The position numbers and the translations under genes were made by a program. A stretch of 63,639 bases of DNA, filler included. It is 6 parts of 6 records of this genome, joined end to end, with 100 filler letters (N's around TTAATTAATTAA, not from the genome) between each part and the next. Parts side by side here need not be neighbours in the genome. Positions count along the whole stretch, not along the records: positions 9,449 to 27,288 come from SRR31156797_9377; 5 more parts are not named here. One strand, written 5' to 3'. A model generated the notes under the pieces. That model was not told the DNA's origin. It saw only the letters and a list, made by a program, of their open reading frames with translations, and searched no databases. Shown piece after piece: positions 9,349 through 30,709 of this stretch. The stretch's first letter is position 1, and each line of letters begins with the position of its first letter.

Positions 9349-9448
9349 NNNNNNNNNNNNNNNNNNNNNNNNNNNNNNNNNNNNNNNNNNNNTTAATTAA
9401 TTAANNNNNNNNNNNNNNNNNNNNNNNNNNNNNNNNNNNNNNNNNNNN
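9349..9448. other. Artificial contig spacer
   Basis: N44-TTAATTAATTAA-N44, which gives stops in all six frames. Confidence 0.99.
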
Positions 9449-9508
9449 ATTGGTCATACGTAAACCAGGCTGATCGCGTGAAGCCCTGGTGCCCGACAAG
9501 CAGTTACC

Positions 9509-11593
9509 CTAAGTCATGGAAATGAACCGCTGCACCTGCCGCTTAAAAAGAGCCAGTGCATCGGGAGAATTATTGCCTGCATAACGAATCGAAACATAAC
9601 GGCCAACTATATCACCAACACCGGCTTCTAGTTCTGGACGTTCCTGACACACACGATTCAAAAAGTTTCGCGGACACTCTCCACGTCCTTTTGCAATCCC
9701 CATTTTTTCCATACGTTTACAGAATACGGCCCAACTTTGGGTCAAGGGTGCAACCGACTCTCTGGTCCGCCACCAGGCAACCAAAAGATACAGCAGCAGC
9801 AGTGCTGTTACGCCTGCGACTGAACCAATCACCATGTCAAGCCAGTTGGTCTCTTTCACTCCCACCCCTTTGAGCAGTTCCACCTGCTTGTCAGGGTTGT
9901 AATTAATTACCCACTTCTGCAGATCACCAAACCAGGTAGACAAATCCGGCATCTGCCAGAACGGCTCTTTCTTTGCCGCTGCAGGTTGTTTTTCCAGTTC
10001 CTGTTTGTCTACAGGATCAGATTCCTTTAAAAACGGCTGTTTTTGCTCTTCCTGCTTGAGCTCAATTGCGGATTCTTCCTGTTTTTCAGGCTTGGCTGCC
10101 GCAGCTTTCTTCCCTGGAGGCAGGACAATATCCTTGGGCTCCACACGGTGCCACCCCTTGTCGTCATCCCAGATCTCCAGCCAGGCATGGGCATTGGTCT
10201 GCTTGACAATTACAAAGTTGGTTAGCGCAATGATGGTACCGCCGCGATACCCACTCACCAGGCGGGAAGGGACACCGGCAGCTCGGAGCAGCATGGCAAT
10301 GCTGCCTGCCAGGTATTCAGCTCCGCCTCTTTTTTCATCAAAAAAATACCTGTCGAGCAGGTCGTACCCCGGCGGGATCACATATCCGGCATCAAAGGTG
10401 AAATCTCCCTTTGCCAGCACACTCAACGCCTTGTGTACTCTATCTGCAGTGGTTGAGTTCTCAGCAGCTATTTTCTCACCCAGCGCCTTTAAGCGCGGAT
10501 TAGTGTTTTCCGGCCATGACAGGGCTAAAGCACGCTGCTGATCAGTGAGGATAGACCCGAATCCGTACTCCAGGTAAGAGGTCATCTGAAATTTTGGTTC
10601 CTTACCGATAATCTTGCGAATACTGAGGAGTTGAAAATCGGAAGTTATGTAGGCTTCCGGTGCTGCAGCGCCTGGTATATCCAGCCCAAAAAGACATTTG
10701 CCGCCATTGGGCATAACCCGCAGGGTATACCGAACAGGTTCAGCCTTATACCGTACTTCGTAATCAAATTTCTTTTTAGAGCGTATGGCTGTACTCATCC
10801 TGCTGTTTCTGTCATCCCACCCATCAGGAAGAGTCCAGTTCTCGCCGTCAAATTCCCAGAACACAGGACCACGCCAGTACAACCGGCTAATAAACGGCGG
10901 GGGACCCTCAAATTCTGCAACCAATACATTCTCGTTCTCTTCAGAAGCCTTATGGAATCCACCTGGCTGCAAGTTCTTAATTTTTCCAAATTCACCGTCC
11001 CCCTTGTTCATCATGGCCTTGACCGGGAGGCCGAAGGCAATCCCTATATCCCATAAGGGTCCGGGAACCCGTGGAAAAACGAGAAAAAGCACCAGGGCCA
11101 GCGGCAGGCCGAGAATAAAGAGGAGTGAGGAACGTTTGAGTAAAAACCTGGCAGTGGTTGCGGCATCTCCGGTGTGTATCCCAATGAGGCTGACAGTAAG
11201 GGCAAAAATCACCACCAGCATATGGATCAGGCTTAACAGGGACTCCCAATACAGTGCCCCCACAGCAGCCAGAATGACAGCGGCAAAAAGAAGGAGCAGG
11301 TAATCCCTTCTTGTTTTGGATTCGCTCCATTTAAGGAAAACCACGGTGATAAAAAAGCTCAGCACTGCTTTGCCTGAAAACCAGCTTTCAAAGCTCAACC
11401 ATATTCCAGCGGCTGCGCCTCCCAGTAAAAGATATAAAATTACTTTGCCAAGCCAGCCCTTTCGCACCCGGGGCAGATAATGCATTACCCCACCTGCAAC
11501 GGCTATCCCAGTCACCCAAAGCGGGAGCTGCCCCAGGCTGGGCGCTGCCGCTAAAATCAATGTTACGAGAACAAGGTTATGAAAACCACTCAT
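9509..11593 (-). CDS. TgpA-like DUF3488 + transglutaminase-like + DUF4129 membrane protein (catalytic Cys absent)
   Basis: N-terminal TM bundle ending LFLVFPRVPGPLW, LYWRGPV, LLRAAGVPSRLVSGYRGG, NAHAWLE. GGAEYLA stands where GxCEHFA is expected. Confidence 0.9.
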   Translation of the reverse strand: MSGFHNLVLVTLILAAAPSLGQLPLWVTGIAVAGGVMHYLPRVRKGWLGKVILYLLLGGAAAGIWLSFESWFSGKAVLSFFITVVFLKWSESKTRRDYLLLLFAAVILAAVGALYWESLLSLIHMLVVIFALTVSLIGIHTGDAATTARFLLKRSSLLFILGLPLALVLFLVFPRVPGPLWDIGIAFGLPVKAMMNKGDGEFGKIKNLQPGGFHKASEENENVLVAEFEGPPPFISRLYWRGPVFWEFDGENWTLPDGWDDRNSRMSTAIRSKKKFDYEVRYKAEPVRYTLRVMPNGGKCLFGLDIPGAAAPEAYITSDFQLLSIRKIIGKEPKFQMTSYLEYGFGSILTDQQRALALSWPENTNPRLKALGEKIAAENSTTADRVHKALSVLAKGDFTFDAGYVIPPGYDLLDRYFFDEKRGGAEYLAGSIAMLLRAAGVPSRLVSGYRGGTIIALTNFVIVKQTNAHAWLEIWDDDKGWHRVEPKDIVLPPGKKAAAAKPEKQEESAIELKQEEQKQPFLKESDPVDKQELEKQPAAAKKEPFWQMPDLSTWFGDLQKWVINYNPDKQVELLKGVGVKETNWLDMVIGSVAGVTALLLLYLLVAWWRTRESVAPLTQSWAVFCKRMEKMGIAKGRGECPRNFLNRVCQERPELEAGVGDIVGRYVSIRYAGNNSPDALALFKRQVQRFISMT

Positions 11594-12546
11594 GGACGGA
11601 TCTCCTGCTCACCACAAAGGGCAAGGGTTTGCAGGCAATGCTGCACGTGTGTTTCGTCTCCTCCCGGTTCTATCACTTCACCGGGCAGCTCCAGTCCAAA
11701 TTCCCTGTTTTCCCGATGGGCATCAACCACCCATCGGCACAACTGCGACAACCGCTCTTCCACACCTGGAGCGTGAACGTCGTCCCATCGCAGCCACAAG
11801 GCTGCATCTCCCTGGGCACCATCGAATTCCTTGGTATACAGCTCATCGAACCTGGCAAAGGCTTTCCATGCTATCCTGGAGAGCGGATCACCGGGAGAGT
11901 AGCGACGCATATCTCTATAACTGCCGGACTCAGAAAAAAGATGGGCCTGCTTATCAGAAGCCGGACTAGGAAGGGGTTGCTCACCAACAGGAGCGGGATA
12001 AACCAGGCATGCGGGTATATCAACAGTTACAAGTCGTGCTTCAAATACCCCCATGGGAAAGCAGCTTCTTATGCTTGCCGGGGCGGATTGAAGCATGCCG
12101 CGGTTGACAGTTTTTCGCTGCAGCTGAAGCTGGGTTTGCCCTTTTCCCTGGAAATGCTTTTCAGAAGAAGATGCCTTTGCGCTGACACCACGCATTCCAT
12201 AACGGATAAAACTCGACCGGTTGGTAACCATTATTTGATACTGGGCGTTTTGCCCGGCAAAGACAGGATCAACCCGCCAGTCAGTAAAACTCAGCTTCTT
12301 TACGTTGCTCCAGGTTTCATAGAGACCGACTATCGCAATGGAAACCAGGAGAAAGGTCATGGCAAAGAGCAGGTTGTTGCTGAAGTTAATCGACATCAGG
12401 AACCCGCATAAAACCAGACCGAAAAAACCATACCCTGAGGGTGTCAGTCGAATACGCACCCCTCCTGGAACAGGTTTGAGAAAATCAAGAGATATCTGTT
12501 TACTCAGTACACCGGTAGTCACCCGGCCCAAACCCATGGCACCCAT
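11590..12546 (-). CDS. DUF58 domain protein
   Basis: N-terminal TM with SINFSNNL, FPMGVF, LVYP, RRYSPGDPLSRIAWKAFAR and LYTKEF; lies between moxR and the transglutaminase gene. Confidence 0.9.
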   Translation of the reverse strand: MGAMGLGRVTTGVLSKQISLDFLKPVPGGVRIRLTPSGYGFFGLVLCGFLMSINFSNNLLFAMTFLLVSIAIVGLYETWSNVKKLSFTDWRVDPVFAGQNAQYQIMVTNRSSFIRYGMRGVSAKASSSEKHFQGKGQTQLQLQRKTVNRGMLQSAPASIRSCFPMGVFEARLVTVDIPACLVYPAPVGEQPLPSPASDKQAHLFSESGSYRDMRRYSPGDPLSRIAWKAFARFDELYTKEFDGAQGDAALWLRWDDVHAPGVEERLSQLCRWVVDAHRENREFGLELPGEVIEPGGDETHVQHCLQTLALCGEQEIRP

Positions 12547-12549
12547 AAT

Positions 12550-13500
12550 TTAATCTACACTCACATTTGAGAGTATCTCTTCACTAATCCGCGAAGAAGA
12601 CATCCTGCCAGCCAATGGCACTAAACGATGGCCAACCACTGCCGGCAGGACCTGTTGAATATCTCCAGGCAGCACAGCTTCCTCATTGTGCAGCAGTGCC
12701 CAGGCCTGGGCAGCACGCAGCAGCCCAATACCTGCCCGGGTAGAAAGACCGGTCTGGAACAATTCGGAATTGCGGGTAAAATCAAGAATGCGGTGGAGGT
12801 ATTCCAGCACTGCCTGGGAGGTGTTAATAGTCTCAACCTTTTTTTGCAGAAGCAGTAACTGCGGCGGTGAGATTAGGGGGGTAAGCGCTTCCAGCATTTC
12901 CCTGCGGTCTTCTCCCCGTAAAATCTCAAGCTCGGCTTCACTGTTGGGGTACCCCATGGATATACGAAGCAGGAACCGGTCAAGCTGCGACTCCGGCAGG
13001 GGGAAAGTCCCCAACTGTTCGGTGGGATTTTGGGTGGCTATAACAAAAAACGGTGCCGGCAGGTTACAGGGTTCGCCTTCAACACTCACCTGCCGTTCTT
13101 CCATGGCCTCAAGCAGCGCACTCTGGCACTTGGGTGTGGCCCGATTGATTTCATCAGCCAGCAGCAGCTGGGTGAAAACAGGCCCCCTGGTAAAATAAAA
13201 TTCTCCTTTGTTGCGGTCATAGATCGAGCTGCCGATAATATCACCTGGCAGCAGGTCACTGGTAAACTGCACCCGCTGGTATTCCAGCCCCAGGCACTTG
13301 CCCAGGGTATGAGCAAGAACCGTTTTGCCAAGTCCGGGCACATCTTCAATCAACAGGTGTCCCTTGGCAAGCAGGCAGGTCAGAGCCATTTTAATCTGCT
13401 CTTCCTTGCCGAGCACAATCCTGCCCAGCTGTTCGTGCACCGGATTGAGCACATCTCCAGCCTGCCACTTATCCACATCAACTTCCGCCATTTTGTTCAT
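12550..13500 (-). CDS. moxR: MoxR family AAA+ ATPase
   Basis: GHLLIEDVPGLGKT, RVQFTSDLLPGD, LLADEINRATPKCQSALLEAMEE, PFFVIATQNP, LPESQLDRF. Start moved to ATG 13500, which has a GGGGG RBS. Confidence 0.93.
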   Translation of the reverse strand: MNKMAEVDVDKWQAGDVLNPVHEQLGRIVLGKEEQIKMALTCLLAKGHLLIEDVPGLGKTVLAHTLGKCLGLEYQRVQFTSDLLPGDIIGSSIYDRNKGEFYFTRGPVFTQLLLADEINRATPKCQSALLEAMEERQVSVEGEPCNLPAPFFVIATQNPTEQLGTFPLPESQLDRFLLRISMGYPNSEAELEILRGEDRREMLEALTPLISPPQLLLLQKKVETINTSQAVLEYLHRILDFTRNSELFQTGLSTRAGIGLLRAAQAWALLHNEEAVLPGDIQQVLPAVVGHRLVPLAGRMSSSRISEEILSNVSVD

Positions 13501-13510
13501 ATATCCCCCA

Positions 13511-14773
13511 TTAAAAATTATATCCGATTCCAAATGTTATGGAGTATGAGTCCCAATCCGCCTCGTTAAACACAGTGTTGTACACCTCATCATCCACGGT
13601 ATAGGTTATCTTTTCCCCATCATCACTACTCATTTTGTGATACGCTGCGCCAAGGGTCCAGAACCAGTTATTGTCTGTGGTGTAACGATAGTACAAAGAG
13701 ACGGTATAGCCTTCTCCGCTGGAATTATGCTGAAAGCTGACAGGCTGCGCCAAATCGGATCGCAGGTTCCACTCGCCATCGGCCTCATAATCGGCCCACT
13801 GATAAGCAAAATTGCCAAACAGGGCATGATGCGTGTTGAACCACAATTCAAGATCAAACCCGACCCAGGGACCTTTCCAGTTCTGCTCGTACCTGGACTG
13901 CAGATCATCAAAGGGTCCCAATGGAGTATCAAAACCATAGGCTGATATAACCTGCTCCCCATCACTCATCTCAAAATCCTGGGAGTGATAACTGTAACCC
14001 ACCAGCGGCATAAAATGGATGCGCCCGCCGTTTGCTGAAAGCGGCGCATCAAAACGATAACCGAAACCAATATTTGTATCGATCAGGGAACCTTCCGAGG
14101 TATCAGCATAGGCACGCGAATACTCCATGGTTCTATTGTCTCCCAGGTAATCGGAATCCTGAACAGTCCCCGACATAATCACCCCCAGATCCACCCCGCC
14201 GCGCAGATAGATTCCACTGGAATTACTCCAGCGAAAGTCTCCGCCAAGTGCAAAGGATTCGATATTATCCCACTGCAGCTCAGACAGAATATTAGGGCTG
14301 TTATCAGGTCCGGCTATATTAAAACTTGCATTATCGTTTCTATAGCCCGCCCTTAAGGTGAAATCAGGACGATACTCAACGAAACAGGGCCGCACCGGTT
14401 CATCCTCTACAATTTCCGGCTTTACTTCACCGCCTGCAACAGGAGATTTTTCGTCCTCTACTGCAGGTAACTCCCCGCCTTCAGCAGTGGCCGCTTTGCC
14501 CTCCTGCAGAGCAGGGGGTTGACCTGGACTTTGTCTTACACCTATTAAAGCGGGCTGTTTGGGCTGCACAGGCTCTGCAGTTTCATCGGTTTGAAACCTG
14601 ATGTTATTAGCTGTCCCTTTCCCGGGATTGATGACCATGTTCAATTCAGTGGGTATCGCGTTGGGATCAGCATTGCTTTCTCCTGCAATACAACTCCCCC
14701 CGCCAGCGTGCAGCAGCACTGCAACAGCTGCAAACTGGAGGCATGGTTTGATTTTCAATTCAACGCTGCTCAT
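13511..14773 (-). CDS. Omptin-like outer-membrane beta-barrel with Pro/Glu-rich N-terminal extension
   Basis: ILSELQW and GTVQDSDY motifs resemble omptin SQLDW and DxDW. Amphipathic strands and terminal aromatic motif GIGYNF. Confidence 0.7.
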   Translation of the reverse strand: MSSVELKIKPCLQFAAVAVLLHAGGGSCIAGESNADPNAIPTELNMVINPGKGTANNIRFQTDETAEPVQPKQPALIGVRQSPGQPPALQEGKAATAEGGELPAVEDEKSPVAGGEVKPEIVEDEPVRPCFVEYRPDFTLRAGYRNDNASFNIAGPDNSPNILSELQWDNIESFALGGDFRWSNSSGIYLRGGVDLGVIMSGTVQDSDYLGDNRTMEYSRAYADTSEGSLIDTNIGFGYRFDAPLSANGGRIHFMPLVGYSYHSQDFEMSDGEQVISAYGFDTPLGPFDDLQSRYEQNWKGPWVGFDLELWFNTHHALFGNFAYQWADYEADGEWNLRSDLAQPVSFQHNSSGEGYTVSLYYRYTTDNNWFWTLGAAYHKMSSDDGEKITYTVDDEVYNTVFNEADWDSYSITFGIGYNF

Positions 14774-17043
14774 TAATTGACCTCCCCGTTAACAACCTTT
14801 TCAAAACTGAAATCCGAAATAAGGTACAGATAGGTAAAATCTCCATCTTCTCCGTTGGGCGCTAATTCCTGACGTTCCAAAGTCGCTGCCCGCCACACAC
14901 CGTTAAGATCCGCAGTATCAATGACACGATTTTTACCTGTCCGGTTAATAACCTTAAGGGCGGTGACAAAATGATAGCCATTGGTCCAGGACGCCACAGG
15001 CTTGGACACAACGCCCTTGTAACTGAACACAGGGACCTCTCCAAGAGCGCGTAAAACAACGGGCCGTACAGCGCCCACCTGTTTTCTCATCAGATATGGG
15101 GTGCGGACCTGTTTCACCGCTATCTTGGTCATTTCCACAAATCCCTGTTCCACTCTGTTTCCACCTGCCATATAAGGCCCCTGGGCAGCGTCAGCTCCAG
15201 CGGCTGCACGTTCCATCTTTTCCCTTCTGCCGCGATCCAGAGAATCAAAATACTGGTCAAGATCACTGGGGTGGGCACTCAGCTCACCAAGTCGCTGCCT
15301 GGTAACTTCCTCACCCTGATCAGGAGCACTGAGAATATGGGGTGTGATGAGCAGCACCAGCTCGGTCTTGATCTCGCTTTTGAGCTGTTCCTTAAAAAAG
15401 AAACCGAGCAGAGGAATATCGCCCAGTACCGGCACCTTATCTTCGCTATCTACTGTTTGAGTACGTATCATCCCGCCAACAGCAATGGTCATGCCGTTCT
15501 GGGCAAGCACTGTTCCTTCAAGCTTGGAGGTATTGATGGTATCAATGGACACATATTCTACGCTATCATCTAATAATACCGGAATCTGGCCCCCTCCTAA
15601 TTCCACTGTTGAGTTCTCATGGACAATACGCATTACCACTGAACGATCAGCATTAATGGAGGGAAGAATAGTCAAGGTGTTGCCTATTTCCGTCACCTCA
15701 GTCACAGGGACAGGCAGCGTGCTGACAGAAACATTTGTACCGCTGGAAACCTCTACCTGCTGGGCCTCGAACCCGGTGGTCAGCACTGTTTCCTCACCGA
15801 TAAACAATTTGGCAGGATGGTTATTGGCCGCCATCAGCATGGGAGTGGCAAGAGACTTTATGTTGTCATTTTGCTCCAGCAGCTGGATGCGAACCCGTAG
15901 ATTTTCACTTAAGGACTGGAACACCAATGTTGGGTCTTCAATCAATCCAAAATTGCCCAAGCCCAGAAGAGAGCTGCCAACGCTTCCGGATTCAGGATTA
16001 AGCGGATTGACAATTTGTCCATCATCGGGTCCGGTCTGATCACTGCCGCTGATGTTGGATATATCAAAGGCAGACTGAAACTGGTCAGTCAGCTGTATCT
16101 CAAGTACCTTCATCTCTAAAAGCACCTCCGGCACCTGCTGGTCGGAATCTTCTATGATCTTGGAGATTTCATCCATGGCCTTTTCGTCTGAAGTCCGGAC
16201 AAAAAGCATGTTGTGGAGCCGGTTCACCGTAATATAGATTTGTGCCTCAGTCCGCTGGGAGACCTGGCTCACCTGGCCGTCGGTGACCGCCAGGATCTGC
16301 TCATTCATCCTTTCTTCCAACATATTCAGCATGGTCGGGGTGAGACTGCCAGTCTCCAGACTCGGCCGCTCCCTGCTTCTGCTGCTGGAGCTGCTGCTTC
16401 TATAGCTTGTACTCCGCGTGGTTGAATTTGAACTACTGGAACTGCTGGAACTGCTGAATTCATCACCGTCATCAATATCCTCTGTAAAAGGATCGTCAGC
16501 AATACTGTCTATCTGGAAGTCATCTCCATAATGGCGGTCTGCCTTGCCAAGCAACTCAACCCTCTCGCCGAACAGGTCGGCAATGGTTCGGGCAGCGATA
16601 CCAACATTGAGATATTTGAGTTGAAACTTTCTGGTGGGTTCATAGCGAAAGACCACTATGTCGCGCTGATACTCGGCAGTGGTCATCACAATAAAAATAC
16701 CGGTCTTCTGGTTGTAACGGTACCAGAGCCCGGAAATCCGGCACATGGAATCCACCACATCGCTTACGGTGAGATCACGGACAAAAAAGGTCACCTTCTT
16801 TTCCCCGGCGGCCTGCGTGGCAACAATATTAACGCCGCTCAACTCAGAAATAACGCGCACTGCATCCTGCACTCTTGTCTTTTTAAATTCCAGCTCCTTT
16901 ACAATAAACTCTTCCGCTCTGTCGCGACCTCTTAATTCATCAGCAAGGGAGGCGCTGCAGCATAAAAAAAACATGAGCAGCACTCCAGCAGCTGCCAGGT
17001 ACAGGGTTATATATATTGGTGGTTCTATCTGTTTCTTCATCAA
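14773..17043 (-). CDS. Secretin (GspD/PilQ family) with DUF3438-like C-terminal extension
   Basis: N0-like domain, Ser-rich insert, EVLLEMKVLEI, LATPMLMAANNHPAKLFIG, KVPVLGDIPLLGFFFK and KTELVLLITPHI, followed by ~190 extra residues. Confidence 0.9.
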   Translation of the reverse strand: MMKKQIEPPIYITLYLAAAGVLLMFFLCCSASLADELRGRDRAEEFIVKELEFKKTRVQDAVRVISELSGVNIVATQAAGEKKVTFFVRDLTVSDVVDSMCRISGLWYRYNQKTGIFIVMTTAEYQRDIVVFRYEPTRKFQLKYLNVGIAARTIADLFGERVELLGKADRHYGDDFQIDSIADDPFTEDIDDGDEFSSSSSSSSSNSTTRSTSYRSSSSSSRSRERPSLETGSLTPTMLNMLEERMNEQILAVTDGQVSQVSQRTEAQIYITVNRLHNMLFVRTSDEKAMDEISKIIEDSDQQVPEVLLEMKVLEIQLTDQFQSAFDISNISGSDQTGPDDGQIVNPLNPESGSVGSSLLGLGNFGLIEDPTLVFQSLSENLRVRIQLLEQNDNIKSLATPMLMAANNHPAKLFIGEETVLTTGFEAQQVEVSSGTNVSVSTLPVPVTEVTEIGNTLTILPSINADRSVVMRIVHENSTVELGGGQIPVLLDDSVEYVSIDTINTSKLEGTVLAQNGMTIAVGGMIRTQTVDSEDKVPVLGDIPLLGFFFKEQLKSEIKTELVLLITPHILSAPDQGEEVTRQRLGELSAHPSDLDQYFDSLDRGRREKMERAAAGADAAQGPYMAGGNRVEQGFVEMTKIAVKQVRTPYLMRKQVGAVRPVVLRALGEVPVFSYKGVVSKPVASWTNGYHFVTALKVINRTGKNRVIDTADLNGVWRAATLERQELAPNGEDGDFTYLYLISDFSFEKVVNGEVN

Positions 17044-17056
17044 TATGGTTTGTCCT

Positions 17057-18837: not shown

Positions 18838-18838
18838 C

Positions 18839-20464
18839 TCAGCTGTCCTCCGGTTTTAAGTGGAGGACTTCATGCAGATACACATCACCTTTAACTACCT
18901 TGTCACAACAATCCTGCCACAAGGTCTTCATATCACCAGCCATTTCACGTATCCGCCGCTCTCCAGCGCCCTCTGAGATAGCCATTCCAATTTCAGGTGT
19001 AATCCAAAACATTTCAAACAATCCGATTCGGCCGCGGAAACCGCTCCCTACACAAAACGAGCAGCCTCCGGGTTCGTAAATCTCGACCCCGGCATCTACA
19101 CTCAAGCCAAGCAGTGCAAGTTCTCCCGGCTCAGCGGTTCTCTTTTTTCGACAATTACTGCATAATTTTCTGCCAAGCCGCTGGGCAAGGACACCGATAA
19201 CAGTTGAACCGATAAGAAACCGCTCTACCCCGATATCGGCAAGTCGCGTGATTGCACCAATGGAATCGTTAGTATGGAGGGTGGAGAGCACCAGGTGCCC
19301 GGTCATGGCAGAGCGCAGCCCAATTTCAGCGGTTTCCTGGTCCCGGATCTCGCCAACAAGAATAACATCCGGATCGTGACGAAGAAAAGAACGGAGCGCC
19401 TGGGCAAAATTAACCTTGGCACTCACCTGTACCTGGCTGACGCCGTCAACGGTTTGCTCCACCGGATCTTCCACGGTGAGGATATTCATCTCATTAATAT
19501 CCAGCTCACGGATGGCGGCATACAAGGTGGTTGACTTACCACTCCCTGTGGGACCGGTGACCAGGATCATCCCATACGGTTTGTTGATCGCTCCCTGGAA
19601 GTCAGAGAGCATTTCACGGGGCATACCCAGTTGCTTAAGGGAGAAATCACCGGTTTCCTGGCCAAGGATTCGCATGGTTGCCCTTTCCCCCCAACGGGTG
19701 GGGATGGTGGCAACCCTGATATCCATTTCCGGAACATCCCAGTCAATAACAGTGTATTTCAGCGCACCGTCCTGGGCCATGCGCTGCTCAGCAATATCAA
19801 GGGAGGACAACACCTTGATCCGATTCATGAGCGCTTCTTCATCAGCTCCACTCAAAACAAGGCTATACTCCTGCATATGACCATCAACCCGCATCCGGAT
19901 GCGCATTCCATCTTCACGGGGTTCAAAATGAATATCAGAAGCACGGCGGATATAGACTTCCTTCATGATCGCATCAAGCAGCTGCACAGGATCCTGTTCA
20001 TCACCTGTTTCCTGATGACTCCTGACACCACCAGCCTGACTGCATTTTCGGATGGCGGCCTTAAGGGTATCCGGAGCAGCCAGAGCGGGTTGATACCGCT
20101 CCCCGGTGGCCCGTTCAATTCTGTCCAGACTTATCCGGTCGTCCGGATCAGCAAGGGCAATAAATCGTTCCCCGTCCTTCTGCTCCAACGGCAGCAGCAG
20201 GCGCTGCTGCCTGGTACTGCGCGGCAGAAGTTCGTATGCTTCTTTGTCTGCCCGCAACGCTGCAGGCTGCAGAAAGGGCATCCCTCTTATATCAGCCAGC
20301 GCCTGGTACAGGGCCGCCTCGGGAAAACGACCGGCACGGGTGACTATTTCAAGCAGACGTAAGCGCTCCCTCTTTGCCTGGAGCCTGAGCGGTTTTAAAT
20401 CTGCTTCCGCCAGCAGTCCTACCTGAATGCCGGCTTCAATAAGCGCTGTCTCTGTTACCGCCAT
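18839..20464 (-). CDS. pilB: PilB/GspE extension ATPase
   Basis: ASDIHFEP, GPTGSGKSTT, TVEDPVE, LRHDPDVILVGEIRD, TGHLVLSTLHTND and a tetracysteine motif (CSNC...CSFC). Confidence 0.93.
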   Translation of the reverse strand: MAVTETALIEAGIQVGLLAEADLKPLRLQAKRERLRLLEIVTRAGRFPEAALYQALADIRGMPFLQPAALRADKEAYELLPRSTRQQRLLLPLEQKDGERFIALADPDDRISLDRIERATGERYQPALAAPDTLKAAIRKCSQAGGVRSHQETGDEQDPVQLLDAIMKEVYIRRASDIHFEPREDGMRIRMRVDGHMQEYSLVLSGADEEALMNRIKVLSSLDIAEQRMAQDGALKYTVIDWDVPEMDIRVATIPTRWGERATMRILGQETGDFSLKQLGMPREMLSDFQGAINKPYGMILVTGPTGSGKSTTLYAAIRELDINEMNILTVEDPVEQTVDGVSQVQVSAKVNFAQALRSFLRHDPDVILVGEIRDQETAEIGLRSAMTGHLVLSTLHTNDSIGAITRLADIGVERFLIGSTVIGVLAQRLGRKLCSNCRKKRTAEPGELALLGLSVDAGVEIYEPGGCSFCVGSGFRGRIGLFEMFWITPEIGMAISEGAGERRIREMAGDMKTLWQDCCDKVVKGDVYLHEVLHLKPEDS

Positions 20465-21561
20465 TACGATCGCCCATCCACCCGTGCAGCATTGACATGA
20501 CGATCAAATCCCTGCTGATCACTGCACAGCTCCATGGCCACATCACGACCAATCTTGCCGCTTTTCACCAACCGTGCCAGGTCCTGGTCCAGGGTCCACA
20601 TCCCATCCCTGGCTCCGGATTCCATCATTGAGTATATCTGCATGGACTTGGACGATTGAATAAGATTAGCTACAGCAGTGTTGACCCGCAGCAGCTCGAC
20701 CACCGGTATTCTGCCTTTATCATCAACCCGTGGCACCAGCCGCTGGGCAATAACCGCCTGCAGCACCATGGAGAGACGATGCCGGGCGGTGGCCTGTTCA
20801 GCCCCCGGGAAATGACCAATAAAACGCTCCACAGCACCAATGGCCTCGCCGGTGTGGAGGGTGGAGAAAACCAGATGCCCGGTTTCTGCGGCGGTGATGG
20901 AGGCCTGCATGGTCTCAAGATCGCGCATCTCACCCACCATCAACACATCTGGATCTTCGCGCATGGCAGCACGGACAGCGTCCGCATAGGTCGGGACATC
21001 GGTGTGCACCTCCCGGTGGTGGACCAGACTTTTTTTACTCGCATGCACAAATTCCACAGGATCTTCCACTGTCAGAATATGACAATCCCTGGTCTGGTTA
21101 ATCTCATTGAGCAGCACGGCCAGGGTTGACGACTTTCCGCTTCCGGTTGCCCCGGTTATAAGCACCAGCCCTGATTTGAGCATGGCAAGCTCACGCAGGG
21201 ATGTGGGCAGATCAAGATCTTTCAGCGACATCATCTGCTGGTTCAGATGCCGTACCGCCAAAGCGGTTTTTCCCATTTCCCGGTAACAGTTAACCCTGAA
21301 CCGCTCTCCAGCTGCAGATGAATAGCCCATATCCACCGTGAGCTGATCCAGAAACTCCTGGTACTGCTTTCCGCTTAAGATGGACTCGGCCATGGAAGAC
21401 AACGTTACACTGGAGAGAATCTCCTCACCCTGTGGCTGCAACCGACCGTCAATCCTGAAACGGACAGGCCCCCCGGCAGAGAAATGAATATCTGAGCCGC
21501 CCAGTGCAACACAAGCCCCCAAATACTGCTCAAAGCTGTTTCTAAATTTTGTCAACGGCAT
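20464..21561 (-). CDS. pilT: PilT/PilU-type retraction ATPase
   Basis: GSDIHFSAG, GATGSGKSST, EDPVEF, REDPDVLMVGEMRD, AETGHLVFSTLHT and AVANLIQ (AIRNLIRE-like). No N-terminal GspE domain or Zn motif. Start set at ATG 21561. Confidence 0.9.
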   Translation of the reverse strand: MPLTKFRNSFEQYLGACVALGGSDIHFSAGGPVRFRIDGRLQPQGEEILSSVTLSSMAESILSGKQYQEFLDQLTVDMGYSSAAGERFRVNCYREMGKTALAVRHLNQQMMSLKDLDLPTSLRELAMLKSGLVLITGATGSGKSSTLAVLLNEINQTRDCHILTVEDPVEFVHASKKSLVHHREVHTDVPTYADAVRAAMREDPDVLMVGEMRDLETMQASITAAETGHLVFSTLHTGEAIGAVERFIGHFPGAEQATARHRLSMVLQAVIAQRLVPRVDDKGRIPVVELLRVNTAVANLIQSSKSMQIYSMMESGARDGMWTLDQDLARLVKSGKIGRDVAMELCSDQQGFDRHVNAARVDGRS

Positions 21562-21562
21562 G

Positions 21563-22243
21563 TTATATGGATACCTCCAGGTCAATATAGAGATAGCCCG
21601 GAGGCACATCTTTGATCCTGCCCTTTCTATTGTCGGATTGTCCCGCCCCGGAAGACATCTCCCCGGAATACACCTTGAGTTTCATCACCGCCATGTGGAA
21701 AGACAGGTCCTTTAAACCACGAAGGAAATCCTGTAAATTGACAAATGGCGCCTGGGCAGTAACGGAAAGCAACGGCCGATCGATGAGCGGGTCAAGGATG
21801 GACCGCCCGCCCACCTTCCCTGTTTTATCGACGCTAAAACCTTTCCGGCGGGCAGTGAGAATTTCCAGTCCGGTTCTATCTGCAAGTTTGGATACCTCCA
21901 GCATGAGCTGCTGTCTGATTGCGCTGGAATCTTCAGGGGCAAAGCCGCTATCCAGTTCATCAAAAGAGGCATTGACCTCGGCTATCTGCTCTTCCACCCT
22001 GGCAATCTTTTTTTGTACCACCTTGGGGGTAACAATATTGTCGCCAAGGTTCTCTATGGATGCCCGCTTCTCCATCCTGTCCTGTTTTCGATGGACCAAT
22101 TTCCCCGCTTCAAAGTAGCGTTTATATGTCCGCGGAAAGACCAGGCCGCCGTATAAAGCAACTATCAGCAACCCCATGACCGCCTGATACTTAAACCGTT
22201 CTTCACGGGAGAGTTTTCTCCACCTGGCAAGCAACCTGATCAT
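21563..22243 (-). CDS. PilO/GspM-like protein
   Basis: LSREER plus single TM, coiled coil and ferredoxin-like C-terminus; follows the PilMN-like gene. Confidence 0.6.
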   Translation of the reverse strand: MIRLLARWRKLSREERFKYQAVMGLLIVALYGGLVFPRTYKRYFEAGKLVHRKQDRMEKRASIENLGDNIVTPKVVQKKIARVEEQIAEVNASFDELDSGFAPEDSSAIRQQLMLEVSKLADRTGLEILTARRKGFSVDKTGKVGGRSILDPLIDRPLLSVTAQAPFVNLQDFLRGLKDLSFHMAVMKLKVYSGEMSSGAGQSDNRKGRIKDVPPGYLYIDLEVSI

Positions 22244-24042
22244 TTCACTGCTCCTGCGGCGAGTTTACTTTTGGTCAACCATATCTTAAGGCCGAAACCT
22301 TCCATACCAAACGGTCCAGCCCCTTTCACAAGCTGCATTTCTAAAACTTTGTATTTCAACGGAGTTAACATTTTATTGAGTTGGGTAATAAAAATCTGCC
22401 CATGGGTGTCATTGACAGCCCACCCCTCCAAGTAAAACCCCTGGCGATCATTGCTTTCTTCCAGCAAATCTATCATCACGTATTCATTTACAGCCTTTCG
22501 AACCACATCAAGTATGCCCGGAGCCAGCTCCTGGCGATAGTAAATGACATTGTTAAGGATGTTCCGGAAGTGCTTAGCCTTTTCCAGTTCTTCCTCTTTT
22601 GCCATCAGCTGCCTTTTCAACTCATTGGTCTCTTGCACTGTTTGCTGCACCTGGGTTTTCATTTCAGTACGCTTTTTGTACTCGATCTGGATCAACTCCA
22701 GCGCCCACTCTTTTTCATCGGCCTGCTTACGCAGATAGGTCTCCCCGCAAACAACTGCAACAAGGAGGACAGCCAGCCCGGCCCACGGCCACAGTTCCTT
22801 ATTTTTCCAGACCGGTGGCCTGCCCTGTTGAGCCTGAATGCCAACCAGGGTAAAGGATTTTACCCGACCAAGTGCATGCAGGGCGGTTCCATAAAGAGCT
22901 GCGCTGCTTTCAGGACCGCACTCATCCAGGCCAGGGAACATTGTATCCTGACTCAACAGGACAACCGGACAGCGCAGTTCTTCAGCCAGCTCTTCAAGGT
23001 GGGTGTTGAATTCGGGTGCAGCACAAACATAGATGGTTTCCGTATCTGTATGGAGGATGGACCGGATATTACGGCCCAGCTCTGCCAGATCAACAGGGCC
23101 CGGGGTACGGCTATGGAAGGCAGAACTTTTTAATCTGCCTTCCTTGCCCTGGTACAGGCCATATTGTTCCTGGCGGATATCAACCAGTATCCATCCTTTT
23201 TTTTCACCTGCGAGTATGGGCAACCCTGCACCCAGCTGCGGATAAACAGCCTTGAGCTGGACTCCGTTTTTTTGCAATGCGGTTGTCCACTGGCTGCAGA
23301 CCGACTCGTTTATGCCGCCGCCCCACCAGGTAAACTGGTCGTACTGTTCGTCGTCGGCCAGGGCTACAGCTCCGGGAAGCAGTTCCCCGTCCTCGCCAAG
23401 CACCTGCTCCTGAATTTCGAGACACTGGTCAATGTCATCCCGGGAAGCGTATTGTTCATAGGCTGCATTAAGAGAGCCGCGACCGCTGGCGGCATCTTCA
23501 ATCTCCATGCGCTGAGCCGGGGTAATTTTACCGCGCCCCATGAGCAGCGCACCCAGCGACCAGATATCGTTCTGGCTGACAAAGAGCTCTTCCAGCTCCC
23601 AGCGCACCATCTCCGATATTTGCTTGACAGCCTTTTTGTTTTTGGGATCAACAGGGAGGTAGAGCAGGTCTGAAGCGCAGCAGGGGGTTATAAGCACTGC
23701 CTTTTTCGGTACCTTGCGTTTGGACTCAGCCCGTAGTTTATCCAGCACTTCGCCGGCGGCATCGTTGAAATTGGCTGCCGAGGAGGTTGCAGCAGTGGAG
23801 AATTGGAAACCACCGAAAGGAGTACTCTTGGCTACAACACCTCTCAATTCGAATCCGGTGGTCTCCAAAACAAGCAGACGGCCTGGGATAGAGGGTTTTG
23901 TGAATCCTTTTTTTGCAGCACCTTTTTTAGCAGGTGTATCAGTTGCTGCCTTCTTGCCCTTTTTGTTGAGAAAAGGGATTTTCTCTATAATGAAGGAAAT
24001 GGAGCTTAATTTTTGAAGAGGATTTAACTTAGCCATTTTCAT
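22240..24042 (-). CDS. Fused PilM-PilN/GspL-like alignment protein
   Basis: Actin-like cytoplasmic N-part (VRWELE), one TM (LWPWAGLAVLLVAVV), coiled coil and PilN-like C-terminus (LEGWA). Confidence 0.6.
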   Translation of the reverse strand: MKMAKLNPLQKLSSISFIIEKIPFLNKKGKKAATDTPAKKGAAKKGFTKPSIPGRLLVLETTGFELRGVVAKSTPFGGFQFSTAATSSAANFNDAAGEVLDKLRAESKRKVPKKAVLITPCCASDLLYLPVDPKNKKAVKQISEMVRWELEELFVSQNDIWSLGALLMGRGKITPAQRMEIEDAASGRGSLNAAYEQYASRDDIDQCLEIQEQVLGEDGELLPGAVALADDEQYDQFTWWGGGINESVCSQWTTALQKNGVQLKAVYPQLGAGLPILAGEKKGWILVDIRQEQYGLYQGKEGRLKSSAFHSRTPGPVDLAELGRNIRSILHTDTETIYVCAAPEFNTHLEELAEELRCPVVLLSQDTMFPGLDECGPESSAALYGTALHALGRVKSFTLVGIQAQQGRPPVWKNKELWPWAGLAVLLVAVVCGETYLRKQADEKEWALELIQIEYKKRTEMKTQVQQTVQETNELKRQLMAKEEELEKAKHFRNILNNVIYYRQELAPGILDVVRKAVNEYVMIDLLEESNDRQGFYLEGWAVNDTHGQIFITQLNKMLTPLKYKVLEMQLVKGAGPFGMEGFGLKIWLTKSKLAAGAVK

Positions 24043-24233
24043 TATTCATCTGCACCGCCCACCGGGGTCATGAGTCACTCGTTTTATTATAATTGATTAA
24101 ATATGCCTGTCCCTGCTGACAGGACGTTGATTTTGCTTCACTTTTCAAACCCGGGAGACAGATCGAAGCCTCCGCTATCTTATTTTCATAAACGGCCATG
24201 AAAAAAGTCAGTCCCCTACCACTATTATCAAAA

Positions 24234-25442
24234 TCAATGTAATTCCCAATACAGGGGGTGCATTACTGTGCCAGGGACAACAGAGAAAACTTGCCAGTCT
24301 GAATTTTTGGGGACTGACCTAGTGATATCACAGGTGTCATCAGAGGGGTCGCTGTTACCTTGATCGTTCCCAACAAAAATTCGATAGGCATATTGCCCTA
24401 ATGCAAGGTACCGGTCCGCATCGGGGTTACTAGAATCTTCAAATGAAAAAATCACTGACTTGCTGTTCCCGTCATACGTCAAGGTCTGTACTCCCTTACT
24501 ACCGTCAGAGGTAATCGGGCTCCCTGAGAAAGTGCCCTTTTCACGTACTGCGATAGACATACAAAGAGTTTCCGCAGATTCCCACAGTCCATTGTGCAAA
24601 GCAGTACAGGTCGAGCTATCAAGAATATTTGGGTCATCAAACCAACTTTCATTGTTATCTTCACAGGCAACACGCTTGTTGTGGGAGGGATCAGAACATC
24701 GCCAACATGAAGCAAGTCTTCCGAAATGTACCCTAATTCCACCTGTTTCATCATTTTCAGCAATATTTTCCCCGTCAGTTATTTTGATTCTATATTGACT
24801 TTCTGCTACAAGGACATCTGAACCTGACGGGGGGTAGTCCGCTTCATAATTCCCTCCACCTGTTGCCCCTGCAAGACCATCAGCACCATAACTTTGAAGT
24901 GTTACAGAGGAGCCAACATTCAAGTTCCATCCAAAATTATTGCTAGAATTACCTACGTTCCCCCAACCATCCTTGAATTTTGGATAACCAATAAGCTCCT
25001 TAGCCTTCAGATAAGGCCCATTCCATCCGTGCCAAAGCCCATACGTTGGATCGTAAGCCCAATCTGGCTGTTCATTAGCAGAGCCAACACTCCATGTACC
25101 GCCAGCACTTGCACAGTTAGAAATATCCTTGTCAGGGTATCCGACACAATACTCTTGACTTACAAGTGCCTGCAGATTCGGCGGCAATGACCCCATATCA
25201 GCCACATATCCGCTAATCTCGGGTGACCCGTTAATGGTCCGTGACGTATCACCGATGATAGCCCTGCGGATTTTTGCAAGCCGATTCCGGGTTTCCTCAA
25301 AGCGAATCTGGTCGCTGTTGTTGTTGACCACGTCCAGGGACATCCAGGCGATGCCGGAGATGATAGTGACCACCAGCAGCAGTTCCAGCAGGGTGAATCC
25401 CTGTTGGTTGTGCAGGGTATGGGAAAGGCTGGGAGCTCGCAT
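24234..25442 (-). CDS. Large GspG-like prepilin/pseudopilin (402 aa)
   Basis: QQG|FTLLELLLVV class III signal; WNGPYL, DGWGN and SYGADG motifs; Cys-rich C-terminal part. Confidence 0.88.
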   Translation of the reverse strand: MRAPSLSHTLHNQQGFTLLELLLVVTIISGIAWMSLDVVNNNSDQIRFEETRNRLAKIRRAIIGDTSRTINGSPEISGYVADMGSLPPNLQALVSQEYCVGYPDKDISNCASAGGTWSVGSANEQPDWAYDPTYGLWHGWNGPYLKAKELIGYPKFKDGWGNVGNSSNNFGWNLNVGSSVTLQSYGADGLAGATGGGNYEADYPPSGSDVLVAESQYRIKITDGENIAENDETGGIRVHFGRLASCWRCSDPSHNKRVACEDNNESWFDDPNILDSSTCTALHNGLWESAETLCMSIAVREKGTFSGSPITSDGSKGVQTLTYDGNSKSVIFSFEDSSNPDADRYLALGQYAYRIFVGNDQGNSDPSDDTCDITRSVPKNSDWQVFSVVPGTVMHPLYWELH

Positions 25443-25448
25443 GGTTGT

Positions 25449-25895
25449 TTACAGGGTGTAATCCACCACCAGAATGGCTGGTCCTTTGGAGTAGTTATAG
25501 ATATGGTAGCCGAGGAAATGGGCCTGTTCCTCTTCCTTGAGCCCTTTTTGCAGCTTTTCCACGGTATTCTTTTCTACATAGACCGGGATTATACGCCCTT
25601 CCCTGGTTTCAATGAACATGCGGTGCTCAACAACCGGCAGCGGATCAACCCCTGCCACCTGAAGCGCCTCGTAGACATAAGTCATCTTTTTCTCTTCGGG
25701 AAAACGCTTCATCTTGGCTTCAAAGGTGATGGGGTCTGCCATCTTGATCAGCTTCTTGCCTTTGCCGATGGTCTTTTTTTCCTGTTCAATAAAGGAGTCC
25801 AAGGTGATCTCTTTAAACGGCTTTTCCTCAGCATGGATACAGTTGGCCGCCATCAATAGGGCCAGGGTAAGTATCAGTAATTTTGCAACTCGCAT
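25449..25895 (-). CDS. Exported hypothetical protein
   Basis: Signal peptide (…NCIHA|EEK), 148 aa, tightly packed between the two pilin genes. Confidence 0.75.
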   Translation of the reverse strand: MRVAKLLILTLALLMAANCIHAEEKPFKEITLDSFIEQEKKTIGKGKKLIKMADPITFEAKMKRFPEEKKMTYVYEALQVAGVDPLPVVEHRMFIETREGRIIPVYVEKNTVEKLQKGLKEEEQAHFLGYHIYNYSKGPAILVVDYTL

Positions 25896-25902
25896 TCGTG
25901 TC

Positions 25903-26778
25903 TCACTCGATGATCAATTGAATGTCATCTTCATTTTCATCTAAATTATCAAAGCGCCCATTAGGCCCCATACTAACGAGAGATATTTCGCGATCATCAG
26001 AAGCATCCTGTAAAAAATACAGATAAGGCCTGCCCCAACTGACGATTTCACCTCTTTCTGGTTCTCCGGTCGCCATTGGTCTATGAATCCTGGACCAGTC
26101 CAACAAATCATCTTCAACACTGGAACTAACAACACCCTCAGCTCGGTGCTCATACGGATCTGCAACACCAAAAACGTCAGGAACAGGTGGAACATTGTGG
26201 GACGCCGAAAGATCTATCTCCAAGGGGTCTCCACCAATTCCTTCATTATGGATATACCCAGTAGTACTAACCTCATTAATTTCACTGCCTATATCGACAT
26301 AACCGTCATTAAAATCCTTCAGATATGGCCCGCGCCATCCACGGCCAGTTTCCTCATCCCAGCTATCACCATCAGTTCCCACTTGGACCAAAAACCCAAG
26401 AGAAGAACCGCCAAAAAACTCCGGCCTTACATAAAGCTGAATAAAATTGGCTGGTGAATTGAACCATCGCGTTTTTTCTGAGTCATTACTCCCAGCGTAC
26501 GCCTTAAATTTACTGACATCCACCTGCCCAGGACTTACTCCATCGTAAACAGCAAACGGCCCTTCCTTAGGGTAATAACCAGTATCCCGTTTGAACTGAC
26601 GAATAGCATCCGCCAGCTGCTGCATCTCTGCATAGGCGAGGCGATCGTCGGAGTCTTCAATTACACCGCGGTACGCACCCATCGCTACCACCGAAATGGC
26701 AGCCAAGACGCTGACCACCACCAGCAGCTCAAGCAAGGTGAAGCCGTGGGAGCTATATCCTTTCACACCCGTGCTCAT
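25903..26778 (-). CDS. GspG-like prepilin/pseudopilin (291 aa)
   Basis: HG|FTLLELLVVV, AIRQFKRDTGYYP, GWRGPYL, WGRPY, VSMGPNG and DDI motifs. Confidence 0.9.
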   Translation of the reverse strand: MSTGVKGYSSHGFTLLELLVVVSVLAAISVVAMGAYRGVIEDSDDRLAYAEMQQLADAIRQFKRDTGYYPKEGPFAVYDGVSPGQVDVSKFKAYAGSNDSEKTRWFNSPANFIQLYVRPEFFGGSSLGFLVQVGTDGDSWDEETGRGWRGPYLKDFNDGYVDIGSEINEVSTTGYIHNEGIGGDPLEIDLSASHNVPPVPDVFGVADPYEHRAEGVVSSSVEDDLLDWSRIHRPMATGEPERGEIVSWGRPYLYFLQDASDDREISLVSMGPNGRFDNLDENEDDIQLIIE

Positions 26779-26797
26779 GGCGCACCCTTACCAATAA

Positions 26798-27109
26798 CTA
26801 TTTTACACACGCCTGACGTGCTTCCTTGAGCCCTGTTTTAAAATCAGCGCCGTATTTTCTCCGGGCACGGCTAACGGCCTCATTTTCCACCATACCTTCG
26901 TTCATCAGCTTGGCAATAAAGTTGTAAATATCGCTTTTAACGCTGTCGCCCATCTCCTCTGCCAGGCATTTTGCCTGGGCAGCATCGTGGCCGGAACGTA
27001 CCAGTCCCTGCTCCATCATCTCCTTGTCCGGTGAACCACAGCCAACCAAAGCAAATACTGTCAACAGTGCTAACCCCATCCAAATTTTTTGTGTTGTTAT
27101 CCGTGTCAC
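26798..27109 (-). CDS. Small lipoprotein
   Basis: GTG 27109 preceded by AAGGAG; lipobox LVG|C; two further Cys residues. Confidence 0.7.
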   Translation of the reverse strand: MTRITTQKIWMGLALLTVFALVGCGSPDKEMMEQGLVRSGHDAAQAKCLAEEMGDSVKSDIYNFIAKLMNEGMVENEAVSRARRKYGADFKTGLKEARQACVK

Positions 27110-27288
27110 GTTCACTCCTTTTTCAAAAAAGTTCTCACTTGATTTCCTGTGAAACCCAAACCCTTCCAGCATCCTGAAACGGTGCACACTTCACAACCAA
27201 CCACCTAACCCTCCTGGTCAGCGGATTTTTCCGCAGACTCTTTACTGCAGGCCATTTGCGGTAGCTAACTACCGGAGTCTTCGCTACC

Positions 27289-28778: not shown

Positions 28779-28796
28779 TTTCTTCCTTTATAAATT

Positions 28797-30134: not shown

Positions 30135-30142
30135 GTCTACTC

Positions 30143-30697: not shown

Positions 30698-30709
30698 TTT
30701 AGATATCTA

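Follow-up and report, generated by a model that had tools for sequence, protein, structure and literature searches.

Type IV filaments (T4Fs) serve in adhesion and motility as well as in the uptake of DNA and the secretion of proteins, and their classification is built on few model systems. Loci for the mannose-sensitive haemagglutinin (MSH) pilus lack a prepilin peptidase gene and are defined by MshM (an ATPase) and MshN (a tetratricopeptide repeat (TPR) protein). Clostridial and other Gram-positive type IV pilus (T4P) clusters carry a pilMN fusion together with pilT; they belong to monoderms and have no secretin. Triads of MoxR, DUF58 and TgpA stand alone in many bacteria, for instance at the tgpA locus of Pseudomonas aeruginosa, and Bat-type operons with MoxR and von Willebrand factor A genes count, like them, among the known systems nearest to the triad described here. 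In the sections of the survey by Denise et al. (2019, PMC6668835) used here, type II secretion systems (T2SSs) are without PilT, the genes of the type IVa pilus (T4aP) are dispersed over several loci, and 884 T4F systems were left unassigned as 'generic'. Here we describe a gene cassette in a stretch of DNA of 63,639 nucleotides (the window, meaning the whole stretch that was analysed), in which it makes up an entire assembly contig, SRR31156797_9377 (9449-27288, 17.8 kb). The cassette is a complete, conserved and horizontally mobile T4F operon with its own motor and platform clades and characteristic accessories.

We consider it likely that this contig carries a single operon for the T4F machine of a diderm bacterium, belonging to a lineage apart from T4aP, the type IVb pilus (T4bP), MSH, T2SS, Com and Tad. 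A reading made earlier from the letters of the window (the sequence-only reading) had proposed a distinct T4F subtype, and this was supported by separate clades in the trees of the motor and the platform and by a gene order conserved in 27 loci. In the ATPase tree (53 rows) the PilB of the window and 19 other cassette PilBs formed one clade of 20, with a support of 100 in the Shimodaira-Hasegawa-like approximate likelihood ratio test (SH-aLRT) and a stem of 0.83, in agreement with an earlier tree of 51 rows. In the platform tree (34 rows) the 20 cassette PilCs also formed one clade (SH-aLRT 98, stem 0.87). Left out of the ATPase tree were the truncated cassette copies L008, L013 and L016 (L numbers are our own), L052 and L047 with very long branches, the duplicate L056, a distant 519-aa T2SSE-like paralogue (L053, no NCBIfam match) and six loci repeating cassette genes that the tree already contained.

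Both cassette clades were placed outside the PilB-, GspE- and TfpB-equivalog references, outside MshE and MshG as identified by context (a neighbouring MshL that exceeded its cut-off), and outside the named references, which were EtpE/F of pO157, HofB/C of E. coli K-12 and the ATPase and platform of the IncI T4bP. The cassette ATPase and platform were excluded from both MSH-context clades (supports 99 and 100), and nesting within a characterised T4aP, MSH or T2SS clade was not seen. The deep node of the ATPase tree splits three ways, into the cassette clade, one of the MSH-context clades, and a group that joins PilB, GspE, TfpB, EtpE and HofB; the T4bP ATPase and a second pair from MSH contexts diverge deeper in the tree. 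Four carrier genomes contained 9-14 T2SSE matches each, including paralogues over the PilB, GspE or TfpB cut-offs. No description of the cassette was found in our literature searches; its relatives may sit among the 'generic' systems mentioned above. The lineage is real and, within this well-known superfamily, unclassified, though ordinary in appearance.

The 600-aa PilM-PilN-like protein (PilMN) of the cassette belongs to a discrete and rare family. A word search among 5.8 billion proteins gave 26 clusters of relatives (best 56% identity), and a profile search among 1.84 billion gave 353 representatives at E<=1e-10. Scanning one genome per species yielded 27 loci in at least six phyla: Thermodesulfobacteriota, Verrucomicrobiota, Planctomycetota, Nitrospinota, Pseudomonadota and Omnitrophota. 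When the 15 window proteins were compared by BLAST with the open reading frames (ORFs) of each locus, the order pilin-sp148-pilin-PilMN-O-PilT-PilB-PilC-P-secretin proved to be shared by these loci, so that the synteny on which the proposed subtype depended held across genomes. Carriers are mostly marine or sediment bacteria. They include Desulfobulbus elongatus DSM 2908, metagenome-assembled genomes (MAGs) of Desulfotalea, Desulfobulbus and Geobacteraceae, Cerasicoccus maritimus and C. frondis, Phycisphaeraceae and other Planctomycetota, Nitrospinaceae, Emcibacter, Chromatiales/Chromatiaceae, Sedimenticolaceae/Thiodiazotropha, Thiosulfatimonas, Methylotenera and an Omnitrophota MAG.

Between phyla, the cassette PilBs are 65-70% identical, against 31-43% identity to other paralogues of the same genomes. 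In both trees the copies of Verrucomicrobiota and Planctomycetota are nested among those of Thermodesulfobacteriota and Pseudomonadota. Together with the high identity across phyla this is the pattern expected of horizontal transfer, and the sequence comparison thus points to movement of the cassette between phyla by this route. It is not a known plasmid module: PilMN had no match in 72,556 plasmid records.

The 15 ORFs of the cassette are all open and lie on the minus strand, from 27187 to 9509 (Table 1). From 24042 down to 9509 they abut or overlap, with overlaps of 1-47 nt and gaps of 1-13 nt, which bears out the tight packing described in the sequence-only reading. A single gap of 191 nt follows the second pilin gene and is a weak candidate for an attenuator or internal promoter that could separate the pilin genes from the machinery genes; in promoter and terminator scans the number of sites in the region was not above that in shuffled controls. 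An Rfam scan of the window gave no family at gathering score, and no riboswitch was seen upstream of the cassette. No RNA run was listed for the stretch among the public sequencing runs; one DNA run contains it and may be the source. Families were assigned by Pfam and NCBIfam scans with the NCBIfam equivalog cut-offs, and PilT was the only cassette protein to reach an NCBIfam cut-off. The eleven gene identities proposed earlier were checked against Pfam, NCBIfam, folds and hhalign, and the gene list proved real; two small conserved genes were missing from it, one for a lipoprotein and one for a secreted protein of 148 aa. The word 'hybrid', by which the operon had been introduced, is a description of gene content and no statement on origin.

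Table 1. Features of the cassette contig and its two limits, in the order of transcription (positions count along the window)
Feature	Position	Strand	Basis or remark
Artificial contig joiner	27289..27388	.	Upstream limit of cassette contig; in relatives a third pilin gene lies further out
Small lipoprotein 'lipo129'	26798..27187	-	GTG 27187 as listed; likely start ATG 27079, giving a 93-aa precursor with lipobox Cys
Prepilin, 291 aa	25903..26778	-	N_methyl and T2SSG N-terminus (Pfam)
Secreted protein 'sp148', 148 aa	25449..25895	-	Sec-type signal peptide; between the two pilin genes
Prepilin, 402 aa	24234..25442	-	N_methyl (Pfam)
Intergenic gap, 191 nt	24043..24233	-	Hairpin 24106-24123; promoter-like site 24113-24086
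Predicted PilM-PilN fusion, 600 aa	22240..24042	-	Fold and hhalign; no Pfam match
PilO/GspM/MshJ-like bitopic protein, 226 aa	21563..22243	-	hhalign; no family match in Pfam scan
PilT-family ATPase, 381 aa	20464..21609	-	TIGR01420 395 bits, cut-off 319.1
Extension ATPase, PilB/GspE-like, 541 aa	18839..20464	-	T2SSE 384 bits, MshEN 59 bits
Inner-membrane platform, PilC/GspF-like, 415 aa	17590..18837	-	T2SSF
PilP/GspC-HR-like periplasmic protein (tentative), 177 aa	17057..17590	-	PilP 17.6 bits, E 0.0038
Secretin, 756 aa	14773..17043	-	Secretin 127 bits; DUF3438 40.6 bits
Outer-membrane beta-barrel, Pom family, 420 aa	13511..14773	-	Pom PF17251 204.8 bits; Omptin PF01278 24.1 bits
MoxR-type AAA+ ATPase, 327 aa	12550..13533	-	AAA_3 204.8 bits and AAA_lid_2
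DUF58-like membrane protein, 318 aa	11590..12546	-	DUF58 22.3 bits, cut-off 23.4 (weak)
TgpA-like inner-membrane protein, 694 aa	9509..11593	-	TgpA_N 163.9 bits, Transglut_core 61.7 bits, DUF4129
Artificial contig joiner	9349..9448	.	N44 + 12 nt + N44; downstream limit of cassette contig

The best PDB match of the retraction ATPase is Aquifex PilT (298 bits), and the translation contains the Walker A motif GATGSGKS, the Walker B-type motif VGEMRD and a His box. The extension ATPase has an N-terminal MshEN-type domain, which by eye is only a partial match to the c-di-GMP-binding motif, and a CxxC...CxxC motif. It scored 459.3 bits with GspE (TIGR02533, cut-off 630.25) and 457.5 bits with PilB (TIGR02538, cut-off 675.65), and its PDB matches were divided evenly between PilF/PilB and GspE (PilF 352, PilB 335 and GspE 328 bits). 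The platform protein scored 270.4 bits with GspF (TIGR02120) against a cut-off of 424. The secretin was nearest to GspD, both in NCBIfam (GspD TIGR02517 150.7 bits, cut-off 351.35; MshL TIGR02519 121.4, cut-off 250.2; PilQ TIGR02515 97.1, cut-off 284.35) and in the PDB (GspD, 66 bits). It has a Ser-rich linker and a C-terminal DUF3438/TraK_C-like domain (approximately 626-747); DUF3438 was found in 9 of 19 secretin orthologues and TraK_C in 2 of 19.

Structure prediction assigned three parts to the 600-aa protein. The model, based on 26 relatives (mean predicted local distance difference test (pLDDT) 80.4), has an actin-like domain at approximately 54-400, a long helix at 415-517 comprising a transmembrane segment and a coiled coil, and a ferredoxin-like alpha/beta domain at 522-591. 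Foldseek matched the model to PilM (5eox, 5eou and 2ych, E 4.5e-12 to 2e-11), then to FtsA, and then to the cytoplasmic domain of EpsL/GspL (E 2.7e-7). Its C-terminal part matched the PilN-position protein of MSH loci in hhalign (69%), and the gene is represented by two ORFs in L010, L011, L016 and L017. On this model the protein is a predicted PilM-PilN fusion with a GspL-like layout. For the 226-aa protein that follows, the orthologue alignment matched a cluster of 11 MSH-context proteins at the MshJ position (hhalign probability 95.8%, E 8e-9, 180 columns); one protein of that cluster reaches T2SSM (28.7 bits, cut-off 27.8). Direct Pfam comparison gave weak matches only, hhalign found no match to the PilMN alignment, and the protein fits GspM/MshJ rather than PilO. 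The 177-aa protein is tentatively PilP-like: a PilP match was obtained in 6 of 13 orthologues, always weak, and its position ahead of the secretin is conserved.

The pilins are large. An orthologue alignment of the 291-aa prepilin showed RGWRGPY to be invariant and WGRPYL and SMGPDG..DD to be nearly so; in the 402-aa prepilin GW.GPY and DGWG are invariant and the C-terminal part is Cys-rich. The GspG motifs claimed for both in the sequence-only reading found modest support. In sequence, the match of the 291-aa prepilin to GspG (TIGR01710, 44.1 bits, cut-off 88.85) covers the N-terminal helix only, and PDB profile searches with both pilin alignments matched this helix and nothing beyond. Among 48,161 chains, the model of the 291-aa prepilin (pLDDT 68.5) nevertheless came closest to EpsG (Z 5.6, root-mean-square deviation 3.0, 104 aligned residues, 25% identity) and next to PulG (Z 5.1), both under our caution line of Z 8, while Foldseek gave nothing at E<=0.001 (E>2). 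A GspG-like core with insertions is likely for this model but not proven. GspH and GspJ models scored 18-22 bits on the cassette pilins (cut-offs 65-80), and a GspH-K set is not present; the contig has two prepilin genes and its relatives have three. The third large prepilin gene adjoins the lipoprotein gene in all 21 loci that reach far enough upstream, the other six starting inside the cassette. In the window it was found neither by tblastn nor by profile search, which is not conclusive because the contig stops 100-200 nt upstream of the lipoprotein gene. A prepilin peptidase gene is lacking in the cassette and lies on other contigs in 4/4 carriers.

The two small proteins match no family in Pfam or NCBIfam. 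Orthologues of lipo129 occur in 8 loci (39-56% identity, Cys14 invariant), and sp148 is found at the same position in 21 of the 27 loci. In the ESM Atlas, sp148 matched unnamed clusters only, plus a lead to an oligonucleotide/oligosaccharide-binding (OB) fold at 0.86.

For the barrel, the fold class suggested earlier stood, and Pom is a better family for it than omptin. The Pom profile is matched from position 2 to 285 of 285 (gathering score 22.4), whereas the omptin score is just over its cut-off of 22.6 and 180 bits below that of Pom. The protein shares this whole-barrel match with the Protochlamydia Pom porins PomS/PomT; compared with these, as presented in the part of the source used here (PMC3561449), it has an N-terminal extension of approximately 140 aa, lies in the variable slot of a pilus operon and occurs in non-chlamydial bacteria. 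This slot, between secretin and MoxR, contains Pom in the window, L002, L005 and L010, nothing in the Cerasicoccus loci and L007, a Phenol_MetA_deg-type barrel in L009, a small ORF and a di-haem oxidoreductase in L016, L021 and L022, and a Sel1 protein in L025. A barrel of its own is present in the window, as had been claimed, but it is not a core part of the machine, because its slot differs among loci. The oxidoreductases are of the DHOR family (322-338 bits) and are encoded right after the secretin in three gammaproteobacterial loci (L016:19623-21158, L021:13334-14878 and L022:3895-5406); in L016 and L021 an ORF of approximately 180 aa without family precedes the gene.

Behind the slot lies the triad. 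MoxR has Walker A GLGKT and Walker B DEINR and is 70-77% identical to the cassette copies of other phyla, and the DUF58 orthologues show 53-61% identity in four named carriers and 27% in L025. None of the four full-length cassette copies of TgpA has the catalytic Cys: Ala or Val stands in its place, Glu stands at the Asp position and His is kept, the positions of the catalytic triad being those we take from the family's usual G-x-C and H-x-W...D-P motifs. A TgpA of C. maritimus from outside the cassette (L090) has kept GWCEH and DP. As the catalytic Cys is missing, the transglutaminase fold is probably a binding scaffold and not an enzyme, and cross-linking of pilins by TgpA, which was considered, is unlikely for the same reason. 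A secretin was found in 19 loci, five of which end too early for MoxR to be judged; in the 14 assessable loci MoxR follows the secretin in 8 (L002-L005, L007, L009, L016 and the deep-branching L025). When three genomes were extended, MoxR-DUF58-TgpA was found to close the cassette in D. elongatus, and the MoxR already seen in the Desulfotalea MAG and in C. maritimus turned out to be followed by DUF58 and TgpA, with identities of 53-76% to the window; in C. frondis the triad is present with TgpA running off the locus end. As a cassette module, which is how it had been presented, the triad is thus frequent and not universal.

Homology of the parts suggests how the machine would work. The prepilins would be cleaved by a prepilin peptidase encoded elsewhere, and the PilB/GspE-like hexamer, acting through the PilC/GspF-like platform, would polymerise the pilins from the inner membrane. 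The PilM-PilN fusion and the GspM/MshJ-like and PilP-like proteins would constitute the alignment complex that connects the platform with the secretin, and the fibre would exit through the latter. PilT would depolymerise the fibre, giving a dynamic, retractile filament; that it retracts is probable, and we draw this solely from the intact PilT gene within the operon. The lipoprotein, sp148 and the barrel of the variable slot may be lineage-specific accessories, and MoxR, DUF58 and the catalytically dead TgpA would most likely serve as envelope chaperone or scaffold in the assembly of the machine. Both this role of the triad and the exposure of the fibre at the surface are what we infer; a surface pilus is preferred over a T2SS-like piston. 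Adhesion or uptake as the function would be a guess.

A number of points weigh against a lineage of its own. The trees come from quick searches with SH-aLRT support only and a small reference set, defined mostly by NCBIfam cut-off or gene context, and they contain no Gram-positive T4P, Com or Tad references. The three-way split at the deep node leaves room for a sister relation to MSH or T2SS. Several parts lean towards T2SS or MSH, namely the GspG-like pilin, the GspL-like fusion, the MshJ/GspM-like protein and the GspD-nearest secretin, so that a secretion piston could be encoded. Of the 23 loci that cover the position behind the O protein, 21 have PilT there; the two without it are both from Methylotenera. 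In 6 of the 14 assessable loci (L015, L018, L019, L020, L022 and L026) other genes or another arrangement follow the secretin and there is no MoxR. The copy in the window has no visible third pilin, which the contig end explains. Finally, the G+C content of the contig (0.506) contrasts with that of the window sequence to the left (0.434) and to the right (0.399), and the assignment of the contig to this genome depends on binning.

The triad invites a rival explanation of its own, in which MoxR-DUF58-TgpA is an independent envelope module that hitch-hikes beside the pilus genes and has no part in the filament. This is a real possibility, if not the one we would choose. Triads that stand alone in many bacteria, the second TgpA elsewhere in C. 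maritimus and the six cassettes without MoxR are all in keeping with it. The cassette triad has the same three families in the same order as the tgpA-type operons of P. aeruginosa, with the same TgpA_N membrane domain and periplasmic transglutaminase-like core. It differs from them in the substituted Cys and Asp positions and in being packed behind a filament machine and transferred together with it. In the window the triad overlaps or abuts the preceding genes. Its proteins are 57-77% identical to the cassette copies of other phyla, with the loss of the catalytic Cys in common; in genomes G001 and G004 the cassette copies are the sole TgpA_N gene and the sole Pom gene, and the triad is present in the deep-branching L025 as well as in the crown group. 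The triad thus behaves as a part of the cassette that is co-transferred with the filament genes. A bolder version, that the cassette is an unnamed T4F branch on par with MSH and T2SS whose assembly or turnover depends on MoxR, DUF58 and the dead, membrane-anchored TgpA, is conceivable, and we put it forward tentatively; if true, this would be the first chaperone-coupled T4F machine, and the widespread, unexplained triad would have a concrete client.

A second rival makes the cassette a type II secretion-like machine, in which folded substrates would be driven out through the secretin by a short periplasmic pseudopilus of the GspG-like pilin, with PilT resetting the piston; sp148 or the proteins of the variable slot, such as di-haem peroxidases, might be the substrates. 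The resemblance to T2SSs (Gsp/Eps/Pul/Etp) is considerable and extends to the organisation as a single operon, the GspE/F-like motor and platform, the best scores of secretin and platform with GspD and GspF, the GspL-like fusion with its GspM-like partner, and EpsG and PulG as the nearest structures to the 291-aa pilin; moreover, exported proteins are encoded within the cassette. We nevertheless consider this explanation unlikely. No T2SS equivalog cut-off was reached, the trees keep the cassette clades apart from the GspE/EtpE and GspF/EtpF references, and the gene order is another one. Instead of a GspH-K set there are pilins of 290-400 aa, 2-3 times the size of pseudopilins, and the cytoplasmic domain of the fusion is a full actin fold of PilM size. 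The lipoprotein, sp148, the TraK_C-like secretin tail and the MoxR triad are extras. The operon includes an intact PilT in 21 of the 23 loci that cover its position; T2SSs are without PilT in the sections of Denise et al. (2019) used here.

With T4aP the cassette shares a PilT over the TIGR01420 cut-off, a PilM-like fold, a PilB/PilC-type motor and platform, a secretin and, presumably, extension and retraction; it differs in being one operon, where the sections of the survey used here describe T4aP genes as scattered. Its PilM and PilN are fused, its PilB and secretin score under the PilB and PilQ cut-offs, its pilins are not PilA-like in sequence, and a FimU-PilVWXE/PilY1 set is missing. The Gram-positive T4P clusters, which lie outside the trees, resemble the cassette in having a fused PilM-PilN and pilT in one cluster, and differ from it in that the cassette has a secretin. 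That the cassette is a divergent MSH-type or T4aP member undeserving of separate status seems very unlikely to us: a GspM/MshJ-like protein (hhalign 95.8%), an MshEN-type N-terminus on the ATPase, a locus without peptidase as in MSH, a branch from the same three-way node and PilT as a T4aP hallmark would all suit it, but the scores stay far below the cut-offs (MshL 121 vs 250, PilQ 97 vs 284, PilB 457 vs 675), the ATPases and platforms fall on a long stem outside both MSH-context clades and the PilB-equivalog clade, the gene order, with PilT in the operon, is unlike that of the MSH loci compared, no MshM/MshN-type ORF or family was found among the 15 cassette genes (Pfam), and the carriers additionally hold canonical PilB, GspE and MSH-context systems.

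The value of the cassette lies in its mix of T2SS-like parts and PilT within a single operon, in its three giant pilins and in the co-transferred link to MoxR, DUF58 and a pseudo-TgpA. By pairing T2SS-like structural parts with a T4aP-type retraction motor it bears on the divergence of secretion pistons and retractile pili, and it ties the MoxR-DUF58-TgpA module to a defined machine. Cultured, non-pathogenic carriers exist in D. elongatus DSM 2908, C. maritimus and C. frondis.

Some loci depart from the common arrangement. L019 and L020, from Methylotenera mobilis 13 and a Methylotenera MAG respectively, carry a variant that is only distantly related, with PilMN 25-26% identical and extra pilin genes, and without PilT, sp148 and the MoxR triad; M. 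mobilis 13 has in addition two MSH-context loci and a canonical PilB. In L022 (1036-10199) the PilP-like gene and the secretin gene lie upstream of the pilin genes, which shows that the order of the cassette can be permuted. In L016 (12448-14935), from a Candidatus Thiodiazotropha MAG, PilT and PilB are each split into two overlapping pieces, and both are intact in the related L017; this is either a decaying copy or the result of assembly errors.

The window consists of at least six contigs strung together, with five spacers of N44 + 12 nt + N44 (9349-9448, 27289-27388, 32494-32593, 38219-38318 and 49295-49394), two of which border the cassette contig. Because of this concatenation, neither the CobN-like genes to the left nor the BCCT/TRAP transporter genes to the right are physical neighbours of the cassette. 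Contig ends truncate the ORFs that run into the spacers, among them 6967-9396 (CobN-like) and 27333-28778 (BCCT). The third-position G+C content was 0.19-0.23 in the BCCT and DctM genes, 0.43-0.61 in the cassette genes and 0.42-0.53 in the other genes measured. Such a strong contrast among the joined contigs (27389-31714 versus the rest) indicates either a very mosaic genome or a bin of mixed organisms.

To the left of the cassette contig, a protein of 2081 aa (593-6838, plus strand) has an unusual architecture, in which CarboxypepD_reg-type repeats are fused to a full CobN/Mg-chelatase domain (1080 bits). It is followed by a second CobN-like ORF (6967-9348, plus strand), which is truncated by the contig end. 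CobN-like proteins were considered as partners of MoxR and ruled out, since they are on a different contig and no counterpart was present near the cassette in 10 loci. At the other end of the window (38319-63639) lies a large polysaccharide/nonulosonic-acid cluster with NeuB, a DegT-type aminotransferase, CTP_transf_3, WbqC, two radical-SAM/SPASM proteins, Wzy_C, a flippase, glycosyltransferases and a 1055-aa MptE-like/Maf-like TPR protein, a gene content that suggests glycosylation of the surface or of flagellin.

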